In this document: piece by piece, positions 57,217-61,264 of the stretch
How positions within the stretch are numbered: position 1 is the first letter of the stretch
Layout of the letters: every line of letters starts with the position of its first letter
Source: Novosphingobium sp.
GTDB lineage: Bacteria > Pseudomonadota > Alphaproteobacteria > Sphingomonadales > Sphingomonadaceae
Length of the DNA: 64,000 nucleotides
Assembly: GCA_044225335.1 (NCBI GenBank)
Contig: JBGAIR010000002.1
Location: forward strand, 8,643 to 72,642
Direction of reading: 5' to 3'
Position numbers and translations under genes: made by a program
Notes under the pieces: generated by a model
Database searches by the model: none
The model's input: the letters and a program-made list of their open reading frames with translations, nothing else
What the model was told of the DNA's origin: nothing

Positions 57217-57963
57217 TTATCGGCGGCTGATTGAGTATGACGAAAATAGTCCATCGCCAAGCCATCGGGCAAGCCAGCCACCGAGCAGACTGGGTTCGAT
57301 ATGCGCGGCTGCCTGGCCGAAAGGGCTCCCCGCTGCCAATTCGCCCAGTGCTTGATGCTCGGCCATGTCGGTCAGGCGAAAATGCGGCATCAGCCCTTGC
57401 CGCCAGACGAGGAGAGACGCGGCTTCGGTCTGCCTTGGCACAAATCCATCAAGCGGATTGTCGGCCGGTGCCGCCGCCAGTGCCAACCATAGCTCGGTGC
57501 AATTCGTCGTGACCTGTCGGCACGCGAAGCCGGCTGCCATGCCAAAGCAGAGCGAATCCCAATCACCATCCGACAAGTCAGCCGAGCGGAGCATGTCCGG
57601 CGAAAGCTCCGGGGCGTCGGGCGCGGCAAATGCGCGTTGCATCTGCCATTCGAGCCAGGCGAGTTCCGCAACCTCGGAATCCCCGGCAAAGAGCTGCGCA
57701 AGCAGTTCCGGGAAATCCGCCCCATAGTCGTCAAGCGTCCAGCTTTTCGGCGGTGTGGTGAGAATGTAATGACAGGCCGCTGCCGTGAATGCTTCCGCGC
57801 CGGTCCAGCGCCTGGTGCGTTCAAAGCTTGTCTCCAATGCGGCCAGCAGACGGCCCCGATAGGCATCGCGATAAATCACCATGCCGGACGAGGAGGGAGC
57901 ATGACCATCGTCATCACCGGCGATTTCGTCGCGAAAGGCCGATTGCAGTGCAAGCAGGCTCAT
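57217..57963 (-). CDS. bufC: DUF2063 protein, BufC-like partner of the MNIO enzyme
   Basis: N-terminal LLALQSAFRDEI..., ..IYRDAYRGRLLAALETSF and a C-terminal domain fit DUF2063. The start overlaps the DUF692 stop (ATGA). Confidence 0.8.
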   Translation of the reverse strand: MSLLALQSAFRDEIAGDDDGHAPSSSGMVIYRDAYRGRLLAALETSFERTRRWTGAEAFTAAACHYILTTPPKSWTLDDYGADFPELLAQLFAGDSEVAELAWLEWQMQRAFAAPDAPELSPDMLRSADLSDGDWDSLCFGMAAGFACRQVTTNCTELWLALAAAPADNPLDGFVPRQTEAASLLVWRQGLMPHFRLTDMAEHQALGELAAGSPFGQAAAHIEPSLLGGWLARWLGDGLFSSYSISRR

Positions 57964-58799
57964 GCCGCAAGACTCCTGCCCTTTGCCAGATCGCGGGCCA
58001 TGGCAAGTTCGCCCAGCAGTTCGCCGAGCGGTGGGATAGCGTCATCACGCTCGATCATCGTTGCGCCAGTGCCAAATCGCTCAACTGCGGCTTCGTACAG
58101 CGCCCAGACCTGGGGACAGACTGCCGCATCGTGGGTATCGATCAACATACCCTCCGGCCCTGAACTGTGCCCGGCCAGATGCATCTGGCGCACCCGATCG
58201 ACCGGGATGCCGCCGAGAAACTCATGGGGATCGAAGCCATGGTTGACGCTGCTGACAAAGACATTGTTGACATCAAGCAGCAGGTAGCAGCCGGTCTCGC
58301 GCGTCAGTGCGGCAAGAAATGCCCACTCGCTCATCGTGCTCTGGCTGAAGCTCACATAGCTTGAAGGATTCTCGACCAGCAGCGGGCGTTCGAGAATGTC
58401 CTGGGCCCGGGCGATGTTGGCAATGCAGGTATCAAGTGCCTCATCCGTGTAGGGCAGCGGCAGCAGGTCATGCGTGGCAAGGCCGCGGACGCGGGTCCAG
58501 CATAAATGATCGGAAACCCACAGCGGGCCAACTCTGCGCGCCAGCGCCTTGAGTTCAGCCATGTAGTCGGGATCAAGCCCTTCCGGCGATCCCAGCGACA
58601 TCGATACGCCATGCATCGCCACGGGATGCCTCTCACGCACCGCATCAAGCGTACGCAGGGGACGCCCGCCGCAGGCCATGAAGTTTTCCGAGATGATCTC
58701 GACGAAATCGACAGGCTGTTCGCCTTCGAGGAAATCGCGATGATGTTCCTTGCGCAGGCCCAGGCCGAAGCCGGTAAATCGCGGAATCGTATCGATCAT
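57960..58799 (-). CDS. bufB: DUF692 / MbnB-like multinuclear non-heme iron oxidase (MNIO), BufB-like
   Basis: GFGLGLRKEH, VDFVEIISENF, HGVSMSLGS, VSDHLCW, LLPLPYTDEA, LVENPSSY, LLLDVNNVFVSSVNHGFDP and MHLAGHS are hallmark DUF692 motifs. Confidence 0.9.
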   Translation of the reverse strand: MIDTIPRFTGFGLGLRKEHHRDFLEGEQPVDFVEIISENFMACGGRPLRTLDAVRERHPVAMHGVSMSLGSPEGLDPDYMAELKALARRVGPLWVSDHLCWTRVRGLATHDLLPLPYTDEALDTCIANIARAQDILERPLLVENPSSYVSFSQSTMSEWAFLAALTRETGCYLLLDVNNVFVSSVNHGFDPHEFLGGIPVDRVRQMHLAGHSSGPEGMLIDTHDAAVCPQVWALYEAAVERFGTGATMIERDDAIPPLGELLGELAMARDLAKGRSLAA

Positions 58800-58825
58800 G
58801 TGAGGCTTCCACTTGTCAGGAAAGT

Positions 58826-58858
58826 GGTCCGACCGGGTGGGGGGAACCCGGCCGGACC
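58826..58858 (-). other. Strong intercistronic hairpin between the precursor and the MNIO gene
   Basis: GGTCCGACCGGG-tggggggaa-CCCGGCCGGACC pairs at 11 of 12 positions. A second small hairpin, GACCC-tttcgg-GGGTC (58863-58878), directly follows the precursor stop. Confidence 0.45.
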
Positions 58859-58878
58859 TTGCGACCCTTTCGGGGGTC

Positions 58879-59163
58879 TCAGCCGATATCGCCGATGGTT
58901 CCGCCGCGCTTGAGGCACATATTCGCGGCCAGCGCCTTGAAGCCTTCGCCCTTGCAGCTGTTCATGCCCTTGCATTCATGCGCGGTGGTCTTGCAGTCGG
59001 CAGTGCCCCTGCAGCTGTTGACGCCATAGCAATGGACCGTGTCGCGCGCGCCAAGCGCCGCGCCGGTGCTGCCCGCAGGCGGGGTGGCGGCGTGGGCCAG
59101 CGCCGACAGGGCGAACATGGCGGCAGCCGAAGCAATGGTGGTGCCGTTCTTGAGGGTGGACAT
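58879..59163 (-). CDS. bufA: Six-Cys bufferin-type RiPP precursor with Sec signal peptide (BufA2-like)
   Basis: [25 protein letters not shown] | ...[46 protein letters not shown]. It has six Cys in CxG/CKG contexts. ATG 59163 has GGAGAG upstream. Confidence 0.8.
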   Translation of the reverse strand: [94 protein letters not shown]

Positions 59164-59345: not shown

Positions 59346-59627
59346 GTGTCGTCTGTGAAAACCACCTCTGCCCTTGCTGCAATCGCCATTGCCGCTGCTT
59401 CGACCGCGGCGCTTGCCGGCAACACCCCTGCCGCCAGTCCCGCGATGGAAAAATGCTATGGCGTTGCCAAGGCTGGCAAGAATGATTGCAAGGCCGGTCC
59501 AGGCACCAGCTGTGCCGGAACCTCCACCCGCGATTATCAGGGCAATGCCTGGAAACTGGTCAAGGCCGGAACCTGCCTTTCGATCCGGACGCCGCGCGGC
59601 CACGGCACGCTGGAGCCACAGGCGTGA
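59346..59627 (+). CDS. bufA: DUF2282 four-Cys bufferin-type precursor with signal peptide (BufA1-like)
   Basis: GTG 59346 has GGGAG 7 nt upstream. (M)[23 protein letters not shown] | [67 protein letters not shown] matches the DUF2282 core. Confidence 0.8.
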
Positions 59628-60091
59628 TCGCGAAATCACCGTTGCTCCGGCGCTATGATGCGGTTGCAGGCTGGCTGTCGGGAACCGTCCCTGAAAGCCT
59701 GATGCTGCTGTTCGTGCGCGTGGCACTCGGCGGGGTTTTCTGGCGGTCAGGCCAGACCAAGGTTGAAGCGGGCAGCTGGTTCACCCTGACCGACAGCACC
59801 CGCGAGCTGTTCCGCACCGAATATTCCGGTGTGCCGCTGCCCCCTGATATTGCCGCGCCGCTGGCCAATGCGGTGGAACATGTGCTGCCGGCCTTGTTAC
59901 TGGCCGGACTGTTCACGCGGTTTTCTGCACTCGGCCTGATCGGCATGACGTTGGTCATCCAGATCTTCGTCTACCCTGATGCATGGTGGCCAGAGCATTC
60001 GCTGTGGATCGGTCTTGCGTTGATCCTGCTGGTGCGTGGTGGCGGGATGATCTCGCTCGACAGGGCGCTTGTCGGGAAAACCCGGGGATGA
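59624..60091 (+). CDS. DoxX-family membrane protein
   Basis: [22 protein letters not shown] and about 4 TM segments. The GTG start overlaps the precursor stop (GTGA), with GGAG upstream. Confidence 0.8.
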
Positions 60092-60615
60092 TTGCGGATG
60101 AGGCCACGCTGACCCGGCTGGCGGGCCTCGCCCAGCGCGGCGACAAGCAGGCCTATGCGGCACTGCTTACCGCTTGCCGCACCTGGCTGTTGCACTATTA
60201 CCGCCGCAAGGTTCCGCCAGATCAGATCGAGGATCTGGTGCAGGACACGCTGCTTTCGTTGCATCGCAAGCTGGCGAGCTATGATCCTTCGCGCTCGGTG
60301 ATGCCGTGGCTCGCGGCCATCGCCCGCTATCGCTTTGTCGATCACCTGCGCCTTGCCTATCGCAATGCGGCTGATGCAATCGAAGATGATATGGCGCTGG
60401 CTCATGATGACGAGCCGGCGCTAACCGCGCGTCTCAGCCTTGATCGGTTGTTCGAGGCCTTGCCTGACGCGCAGTGCCGCGCGATCGAACTGGTCAAGAT
60501 CGAAGGCCTGTCGATCAGTGAGGCGTCCAGCTCGACCGGACAAAGCGAATCGCTGATCAAGGTGAATATCCATAGAGGCTTGAAACGCCTCTCCGCATTG
60601 ATTGAGAGAGCCTGA
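60088..60615 (+). CDS. ECF RNA polymerase sigma factor (SigF-like)
   Basis: Region 2 (IEDLVQDTLLSLHRKLASYDPSRSVMPWLAAIARYRFVDHLR) and region 4 (LPDAQCRAIELVKIEGLSISEASSSTGQSESLIKVNIHRGLKRL). ATG overlaps the DoxX stop (ATGA). Confidence 0.85.
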   Translation: MIADEATLTRLAGLAQRGDKQAYAALLTACRTWLLHYYRRKVPPDQIEDLVQDTLLSLHRKLASYDPSRSVMPWLAAIARYRFVDHLRLAYRNAADAIEDDMALAHDDEPALTARLSLDRLFEALPDAQCRAIELVKIEGLSISEASSSTGQSESLIKVNIHRGLKRLSALIERA

Positions 60616-60619
60616 GCCC

Positions 60620-61264
60620 ATGGCGCGGAATCCAGATAGACTGATCGCTGGCCTGGTCGACGAGCTTGAGCCTGTGCGCCCCCTGCGGCAGCGTCAGGGC
60701 ATTGCCCGGGCGGTATTGGCATTGATCGCCGGCGCCGCAATCATTGCGCTCGGCCTTGGTGTGCGGCGCGATATTTCTGCCGGACGACCTGATCCGATGT
60801 TCCTGACGTCGAGCGGCCTGTTCCTGGTGCTGGCGCTCGCTTCGGCCTGGGCGGTCATCGACATGGCGCGTCCCTATGTCGGCATCCGGCGCGAAGGCTG
60901 GGGTTGGACCCTGCTGATGGCAGCGGTGCTGCCGGTTTCGGCAGTGGTGCTTGCCCTGGCCGATTGGCTGGGCGGCGCGCGCGTTGCGCTTGACCACAAT
61001 GGCATAACCTGCCTGAGTTTCGGCATTGCCATCGGCTTGCTGACAGCAACCACGCTGATCATCTGGCTGCGCCGGGGGGCGCCCTCCAGCCCCAAGCGGG
61101 CCGGCCTGTTGACCGGCGTGGCATCCGGCGCTGCAGGGATTTTCGCGGTATCGCTCTATTGTCCGAGCAATGATCTGCTGCACATCGGTATTTGGCACGG
61201 CGGCACGGTGATCCTGATGGGATTGGGAGGCCGCTTGTTCCTGCCACGGCTGCTCGCCTGGTAG
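60620..61264 (+). CDS. nrsF: NrsF-family (DUF1109) membrane anti-sigma factor
   Basis: DRLIAGLVDELEPVRPL N-terminus, 6 predicted TM segments, and two Cys in predicted loops (..GITCLSF.., ..SLYCPSND..). Confidence 0.8.
   Translation: MARNPDRLIAGLVDELEPVRPLRQRQGIARAVLALIAGAAIIALGLGVRRDISAGRPDPMFLTSSGLFLVLALASAWAVIDMARPYVGIRREGWGWTLLMAAVLPVSAVVLALADWLGGARVALDHNGITCLSFGIAIGLLTATTLIIWLRRGAPSSPKRAGLLTGVASGAAGIFAVSLYCPSNDLLHIGIWHGGTVILMGLGGRLFLPRLLAW

Follow-up and report, generated by a model that had tools for sequence, protein, structure and literature searches.

The 64,000-nt stretch of Novosphingobium sp. DNA analyzed here (GCA_044225335.1, contig JBGAIR010000002.1, positions 8,643 to 72,642; termed the window throughout) harbors a divergent seven-gene bufferin locus, as derived from the open reading frame listing and profile searches: bufA2, bufB and bufC on the minus strand, and bufA1, doxX, the gene of an extracytoplasmic function (ECF) sigma factor and nrsF on the plus strand. 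Sequence comparisons identify this arrangement as a buf2 operon combined with a buf1 operon minus its own bufB1-bufC1 genes, and we consider it rather probable that the single remaining BufB/BufC pair, which is of the Buf2 type, would mature the 4-Cys precursor BufA1 in addition to the 6-Cys precursor BufA2. Enzymes of this lineage occur next to BufA2 alone, next to BufA1 and BufA2, or next to BufA1 alone, and sister loci have kept the Buf1-type pair, which amounts to a natural test of substrate choice by MNIO enzymes. No larger family of peptides modified by MNIO enzymes is known than the bufferins, whose role in copper defense has been recognized recently.

The minus-strand operon starts with bufA2 (58879..59163), encoding a bufferin-2 precursor of 94 aa with six cysteines at positions 45/51/57/64/70/83 (NF050166 Cu_RiPP_BufA2, 98.9 bits at a cut-off of 60). 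It continues with bufB (57960..58799; 279 aa), coding for an MNIO (DUF692) bufferin maturase of the Buf2 ('Cys-Lys') type, and bufC (57217..57963; 248 aa) for its DUF2063 or PME-type-1 partner (PF09836, 67.5 bits). BufB matched NF050167 (MNIO_BufB) with 366.1 bits over model positions 1-262 of 262 (cut-off 310 bits), PF05114 with 360 bits, PDB entry 3BWW (2e-47), TglH and MbnB. On the plus strand, bufA1 (59346..59627), with a GTG start and a GGGAG ribosome-binding site 7 nt ahead, encodes a DUF2282 bufferin-1 precursor of 93 aa with cysteines at positions 37/48/56/77 (PF10048, 86.1 bits, cut-off 22.4), followed by the bufD-like doxX (59624..60091; 155 aa; PF07681, 63 bits), the gene of the sigmaF-like ECF sigma factor (60088..60615; 175 aa; Sigma70_r2 and Sigma70_r4_2 domains) and the anti-sigma factor gene nrsF (60620..61264; 214 aa; PF06532, 140 bits, full length). 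As read from the sequence, the bufB stop and bufC start overlap in ATGA, the bufA1 stop and doxX start in GTGA (translational coupling), and doxX and the sigma factor gene again in ATGA, while a gap of 4 nt separates the latter from nrsF. Judged by eye, the N-terminus of each precursor looks like a signal peptide, combining a Lys-bearing N-region with a hydrophobic stretch rich in Ala and a site of the AxA type (AHA|A and ALA|G).

Each component is a textbook member of a bufferin/captophorin system and of the sigmaF/NrsF regulon, with a DUF2063 gene directly after the MNIO gene and Cys-rich precursors carrying bufferin signatures. The order bufA2-bufB-bufC and the Buf2-type lineage of BufB are those of a buf2 operon. 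Sigma and NrsF genes, however, have been reported for Buf1 and not for Buf2 clusters (Antoine et al. 2025, PMC12452194), whereas sigF-nrsF lies only 0.9 kb away in the divergent operon of our locus. The plus-strand half resembles a canonical buf1 operon in having doxX in the bufA1 operon and sigF-nrsF adjoining, but departs from it in that no Buf1-type MNIO/DUF2063 pair follows bufA1, the doxX start overlapping the bufA1 stop instead. Profile hidden Markov models built from all seven proteins detected no second MNIO, DUF2063, DUF2282 or BufA2 gene elsewhere in the window. A preliminary description of this DNA had listed the seven genes with these lengths and couplings, and all of them were verified. 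Its assignment to the bufferin type is borne out by the family matches of BufA1, BufA2, BufB and BufC, and its account of a DUF2282 precursor that keeps DoxX and regulators without a maturase of its own, opposite a sole BufB/BufC pair that follows the 6-Cys precursor, was confirmed and is extended here by the phylogenetic placement of BufB.

Ancestry of the maturase pair and origin of the layout

We interpret the layout as a buf2 operon plus a maturase-less buf1 operon because the surviving BufB is a Buf2-type enzyme by tree position, profile scores and an active-site motif. In a neighbor-joining tree of 87 BufB sequences (200 bootstraps), whose deep branches are too weak to count losses, the BufA1-adjoining enzymes formed a separate clade at 100% bootstrap, and the window BufB fell within the Buf2-type clade, grouped with those of the Novosphingobium loci L001-L004 at 99.5%. 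When scored with a window-derived profile, the BufA1-adjoining BufB enzymes of loci with two complete operons (double loci) reached 333-377 bits versus 457-475 bits for the BufA2-adjoining ones. The BufC partners were set apart in the same way, with 250-320 bits for partners of Buf2-type BufB versus 151-184 bits for Buf1-type partners, and the window BufC scored as Buf2-type. The window BufB furthermore has an ERDD motif, that is, an Asp after the catalytic Asp, a residue (BufB2-Asp251) that has been linked to Cys-Lys (BufA2-type) substrates (PMC13097082). A simple inversion of a canonical buf1 operon, as another conceivable origin, is ruled out by BufB being of the Buf2 type.

The split architecture was surveyed, as the preliminary description had proposed, in the 80 BufB loci closest to ours, which were taken from one scan of species-representative genomes with the window BufB, including up to 10 kb of flank on each side, and annotated by iterated profiles of the seven window proteins. 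The exact window layout (NrsF<SigF<DoxX<BufA1< >BufA2>BufB>BufC) was present in 26 of the 80 loci, with examples from sphingomonad genera (Novosphingobium, Sphingomonas, Sphingobium, Qipengyuania, Erythrobacter, Pontixanthobacter and Croceicoccus) and also from Halopseudomonas, Congregibacter and Luteimonas. Another 15 loci, for instance from Sphingomonas and Sphingobium, had the order DoxX<BufA1< >SigF>NrsF>BufA2>BufB>BufC, and two, one from Luteibacter and one from a Caulobacter metagenome-assembled genome (MAG), the order BufA1>DoxX>BufA2>BufB>BufC. Ten loci plus one truncated contig, from Erythrobacter, Qipengyuania and Porphyrobacter, displayed the window layout without bufA2, with BufA1-DoxX-SigF-NrsF facing BufB-BufC. 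Two complete operons were seen in six loci (L006, L019, L021, L022, L025, L065), BufA2 as the only precursor in 17 (including Bradyrhizobium), and three loci were of other type or truncated.

BufA1 with only a Buf2-type BufB/BufC pair nearby accordingly accounts for 53 of the 80 loci, a figure that describes this enzyme lineage, the loci having been picked by likeness to the window BufB, and not the frequency over all bufferin loci. The layout, first taken for a peculiarity, is the commonest form among the relatives of this enzyme, and in sphingomonads it is both frequent and conserved. An extra Buf1-type pair within 10 kb on either side was absent from 52 of the 53 loci with such an 'orphan' BufA1. 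The exception, L007 (Novosphingobium aquiterrae), carries a second bufA1-bufB (Buf1-type) operon at 20153-20808, which begins some 9 kb beyond the downstream side of the split locus and runs off the fetched stretch. No synteny of the flanks was found with the closest relatives; because flanking genes differ even there, it is the seven-gene module as such that has been conserved, and its four-gene part bufA1-doxX-sigF-nrsF is kept in over 50 species. Among the rows listed in the complete-genome table of Antoine et al. (2025), only Sphingopyxis (canonical buf1) and Asticcacaulis (double locus) were informative; a sphingomonad with one MNIO and two precursors is not among these rows, and the first sphingomonads listed are devoid of bufferins.

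The notion of a canonical operon 'taken apart' fits these relatives that still hold both full operons, among them the divergent double locus of Asticcacaulis. Matched full and reduced loci differ only by the Buf1-type pair, namely L022 versus the type represented by 15 loci, and Luteibacter L025 and L065 versus Luteibacter L014, which suggests, on the basis of gene order, that the Buf1-type maturase was lost more than once independently. The layout goes back to two adjacent bufferin operons that lost the Buf1-type maturase pair. This pair has been lost only where a Buf2-type pair adjoins.

Probable substrates of the single maturase pair

The preliminary description had assumed that a maturase acting on both precursors would have to handle two unrelated cores, which is not borne out. 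A profile-profile comparison of BufA1 and BufA2 (hhalign, E=5e-4) aligned Cys I/II/III/IV of BufA1 with Cys I/III/IV/VI of BufA2, and the NCBIfam model of BufA2 matched BufA1 at 4e-4. A pairwise BLASTP comparison was not significant (E=0.32), the homology being visible at the profile level only. At this level of sequence comparison the two are homologous scaffolds, in agreement with the literature, in which the families are described as paralogues that share a predicted fold (PMC3511200, PMC11626156). In a comparison across 60 loci, the BufA1 core is nearly invariant, and this extends to both central cysteines, the ones turned into thiooxazoles in Caulobacter. The surrounding motif NDC[K/A]AG[P/A]GTSCAGT shows the same invariance in orphan BufA1s and in those with their own maturase, and no residues were found that tell BufA1s with an adjoining dedicated maturase from those without, the Lys/Ala position after the second Cys included.

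The loci that lack bufA2 (L036, L038, L040, L042, L048, L055, L063, L066, L076, L077; about 9500-11650 in each) are monophyletic at 80% bootstrap and nested among the split loci in the BufB tree. They keep a Buf2-type bufB-bufC pair facing bufA1, which is the only linked precursor for this pair. Relics of bufA2 were not detected in them, apart from weak matches on the wrong strand. A near-consensus sigmaF motif (GTAAC[G/A]-N16-CGAA) is aimed at bufB from 53-300 nt upstream, and median ratios of non-synonymous to synonymous substitution rates (dN/dS) of 0.10 for BufB and 0.22 for BufC indicate purifying selection. In four of the ten BufB enzymes of this clade, ERDD is replaced with ERDE at a residue for which contact with the substrate Lys has been proposed; this Asp-to-Glu change may be taken as a hint, no more, of retuning.

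Shared maturation is favored, since the BufA1 core stays nearly invariant with or without an adjoining dedicated maturase, since BufA1 and BufA2 are homologous, and since the two operons share a regulator and stay together while their flanks change. The most telling line of evidence is the clade without bufA2, in which a selected, sigmaF-promoted BufB/BufC pair has been kept with only BufA1 linked to it. In the scenario that we infer, metal or oxidant stress would act on the membrane anti-sigma factor NrsF via its periplasmic Cys131 and Cys181, thereby freeing the ECF sigma factor, which would fire the two back-to-back promoters of bufA2-bufB-bufC and bufA1-doxX-sigF-nrsF. The single Buf2-type MNIO BufB and its DUF2063 partner BufC would then turn cysteines of BufA2 and BufA1 into 5-thiooxazoles in the cytoplasm, before both peptides are delivered by the Sec pathway to the periplasm for putative copper buffering. 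A strong hairpin after bufA2 would probably keep precursor mRNA in excess of enzyme mRNA.

Several points weigh against one pair serving both precursors. The link between BufA1 and BufB/BufC is drawn from genome comparison, within a sample of 80 loci chosen by BufB likeness and with a tree built by neighbor-joining only. Shared recognition might predict more similar leaders within loci, yet BufA1 and BufA2 leaders of one locus did not resemble each other more than cross-locus leaders did (mean score 6.96 versus 6.32, p=0.25). Similarity networks place Buf1-linked and Buf2-linked MNIOs in different areas (PMC12452194), and active-site residues tune the substrate choice of MNIOs (PMC13097082). 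Our view moreover comprises 64 kb of the genome, with the locus 2.7 kb from the right end of the window, such that a Buf1-type pair may lie elsewhere; the extra bufA1-bufB operon of L007, 9 kb from the split locus, is situated just beyond that distance. The latter points would accommodate maturation of BufA1 in trans by a Buf1-type BufB/BufC pair dedicated to it at another genomic site, the local pair serving BufA2 only, and so would the existence of genomes with many bufferin loci, such as Legionella with seven MNIOs, and the ties between MNIO subgroups and precursor families in the above networks (PMC12452194). We nonetheless regard trans maturation as unlikely. A second pair was seen neither in the window nor within the 10-kb flanks of 52 of the 53 loci with an orphan BufA1, and the extra operon of L007 comes with its own bufA1. 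Both the confinement of Buf1-type loss to loci with an adjoining Buf2-type pair and the upkeep of a Buf2-type pair with BufA1 as its sole linked precursor are also difficult to reconcile with a local pair dedicated to BufA2.

The persistence of BufB/BufC opposite bufA1 once bufA2 is gone would likewise find no explanation if BufA1 were exported unmodified and, together with the coupled DoxX, used its thiols and a disulfide for redox work or metal binding in the periplasm, independent of any MNIO. There is room for some other role of DoxX, which is dispensable for the modifications in Caulobacter. However, orphan BufA1s have retained the motif around the two modified cysteines as strictly as maturase-linked ones, and metal binding by Caulobacter Buf1 requires the thiooxazoles, with bufB1 and bufC1 needed for the copper phenotype (PMC11626156), and we therefore consider this idea quite improbable. 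The missing enzymes of the canonical operon could finally be read as a sign that the plus-strand half is a decaying, functionless remnant of a buf1 operon. Four intact, translationally coupled genes behind a perfect promoter argue otherwise, as does the fact that this half holds the only sigma/anti-sigma pair of the locus, and its conservation in so many species effectively refutes the idea.

Beyond the window, the comparison inclines us, by a narrow measure, to view Buf2-type pairs as natural dual-substrate maturases. They may have taken over the DUF2282 bufferin after loss of the Buf1-type pair across Sphingomonadales and, in what look like independent events, in Luteibacter and a Caulobacter lineage, and may have switched wholly to BufA1 in one Erythrobacter/Qipengyuania clade.

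Regulation and genomic surroundings

Control by SigF/NrsF, as advanced in the preliminary description, is backed by two perfect promoter motifs. The sigmaF promoter defined experimentally in Caulobacter, GTAACC-N16-CGAA (PMC3511200), has three exact matches in the window and none in shuffled sequences. Two of these lie back to back and point outwards in the 183-bp divergent region between bufA2 and bufA1, one on the minus strand at 59210..59235, 46 nt upstream of the bufA2 ATG, and the other on the plus strand at 59268..59293, 52 nt upstream of the bufA1 GTG. This places both operons in one predicted sigmaF regulon, and as sigF and nrsF are coupled behind bufA1-doxX, the regulator genes lie downstream of one of their own target promoters. 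Among the 80 loci, 92 of 110 exact motifs were located within 250 bp upstream of bufA2, bufA1 or sigF, and an upstream motif preceded bufA2 in 42, bufA1 in 35 and sigF in 15 loci. NrsF has only two cysteines, Cys131 and Cys181, the same positions that were shown to matter in Caulobacter NrsF, likewise of 214 aa (PMC3511200); its score against the NCBIfam equivalog NF042994 is only 35 bits (cut-off 300).

The third exact motif (34627-34652), in a minus-strand stretch at 34089-34652, is positioned directly upstream of a gene for a SelR/MsrB methionine-sulfoxide reductase of 176 aa (PF01641, 151 bits), whose N-terminus resembles a Tat or lipoprotein signal (RRRLLGWLSASAALPVLAACGG). From its promoter motif, this msrB gene is likely an extra member of the sigmaF regulon, which would tie bufferins to the periplasmic repair of oxidized methionine. 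In the Sphingomonas-type loci L015 (8276-11571) and L021 (8266-11559), nrsF is followed by a secreted S-adenosylmethionine (SAM)-methyltransferase-like gene and then by an exact match to the sigmaF promoter, some 70 nt ahead of bufB-bufC. No precursor gene is found between this promoter and bufB-bufC in either locus, making for a maturase pair without an adjoining precursor; L021 contains a run of masked N bases.

The 79-nt spacer between bufA2 and bufB folds into a 13-bp stem-loop (58826..58858, minus strand) with a minimum free energy of -44.3 kcal/mol, calculated for a spacer sequence of 91 nt (z=-4.2), and none of 200 shuffled sequences was as stable. Nearly all related loci have a long hairpin in this spacer (z<-2 in 48 of 63), with stems of 11-20 bp, the structure but not the sequence being kept across alpha- and gammaproteobacterial loci. 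The hairpin thus looks like a general feature of buf2 operons, as far as folding predictions go, and may act as a leaky terminator or mRNA stabilizer that sets the precursor:enzyme ratio. It is not mentioned in those parts of the bufferin literature that we examined. In L014 (Luteibacter sp. Lutesp34; 9600-9980), the same spacer is enlarged by a repeat of about 90 nt present in roughly four tandem copies (translation ...RRSREGGNPATPAACERH...), and doxX is separated from bufA2 by an inserted alpha/beta-hydrolase-like gene.

On its left, the locus is adjoined by a plus-strand cyclic di-GMP operon (54602-56881) comprising genes for YfiR (DUF4154), a YfiN-like protein (CHASE8-GGDEF) and YfiB (OmpA-family lipoprotein; NF053585, 174 bits). 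As this operon is not syntenic in relatives, its adjacency is probably coincidental. Downstream of nrsF (61277-63855) follow a convergent LysR regulator gene, an AhpD/CMD-family peroxidase-related gene (TIGR01926, 90 bits) and a DUF1348/SnoaL-like gene; these may relate to oxidative stress, and they are not kept beside the bufferin module in relatives. The window BufB had no identical database record and the locus no plasmid match. Identical BufC and BufA2 proteins were encountered on 2-kb Logan metagenome contigs only, the best species-representative genome being 80% identical. On Logan contigs with identical proteins, independent gene calls agree with ours (BufA1 93 aa, DoxX 155 aa, BufA2 94 aa).

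Relation to known systems

Many bufferin precursors are unlinked to any MNIO, tandem precursors exist, and some genomes encode several precursors together with a single MNIO/PME-1 pair 'possibly' serving all of them (PMC12452194). The two alternatives put forward in the preliminary description, namely that one pair serves several precursors or that some of these stay unmodified, thus stand as possibilities but not as a new prediction, since both have been raised there in general terms. Published text, within the portions covered, contained no account of a conserved hybrid cluster of Buf1- and Buf2-family precursors with a Buf2-type enzyme, nor of its dominance in Sphingomonadales, its reduction series or a clade combining a Buf2-type enzyme with BufA1 only; this statement refers to text and not to figures. 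If one pair indeed matures both precursors, mining rules that assign enzyme subfamilies to precursor families would need revising, and 'orphan' DUF2282 genes would have to be read as serviced precursors. A graded natural series for mapping recognition would then be at hand, from both pairs via one pair with two precursors to one pair with the 'wrong' precursor. If shared maturation is false, unmodified DoxX-coupled DUF2282 proteins would have a function of their own.

The plus-strand half of our locus is closest to Caulobacter vibrioides buf1ABCD with its divergent sigF-nrsF (CCNA_03363-03366; CC3254-3257, CC3253-3252), with which it has in common the 4-Cys DUF2282 precursor (here with a putative signal peptide), doxX, the adjoining genes for sigmaF and NrsF, an identical GTAACC-N16-CGAA consensus and an NrsF of 214 aa with Cys131 and Cys181. 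Unlike the Caulobacter operon, it lacks BufB1/BufC1 between bufA1 and doxX, which overlap by GTGA, and its sigF-nrsF genes are co-directional with and coupled to doxX, and thus placed behind the bufA1 promoter, instead of being divergent. The minus-strand half corresponds to C. vibrioides buf2ABC (CCNA_03001-02999) in the order bufA2-bufB-bufC, the 6-Cys precursor, the upstream sigmaF promoter and a Buf2-type MNIO with Asp after the catalytic Asp. In Caulobacter, however, buf2ABC stands alone at a separate locus, whereas its window counterpart abuts bufA1-doxX-sigF-nrsF in divergent orientation and contributes the only maturase pair of the locus. The double loci of a Sphingomonas MAG (L022), Luteibacter (L025 and L065), L006, L019 and Asticcacaulis (WP_013481130-136) share the same seven families in nearly the same order along with sigmaF promoters. 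They retain a Buf1-type BufB/BufC pair between bufA1 and doxX, and the window layout equals their arrangement minus this pair. Tandem-precursor clusters, and cases of several precursors with one MNIO/PME-1 pair, come near to our reading in that one pair is proposed for more than one precursor. These cases are described in general terms (Antoine et al. 2025), whereas in the window, specifically, precursors of both the Buf1 and the Buf2 family accompany an enzyme of the Buf2 type. Other thiooxazole 'captophorin' systems (oxazolin/HvfABC, fontiphorin FonABC and the gig operons of Cupriavidus and Legionella) resemble the window in uniting an MNIO and a DUF2063 partner with a Cys-rich precursor, which in the window is putatively a Sec substrate too; DoxX is often present, and their role relates to stress or copper. 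They differ from it in their precursor families (EGKCG repeats), in their regulation and in having one precursor family per cluster.

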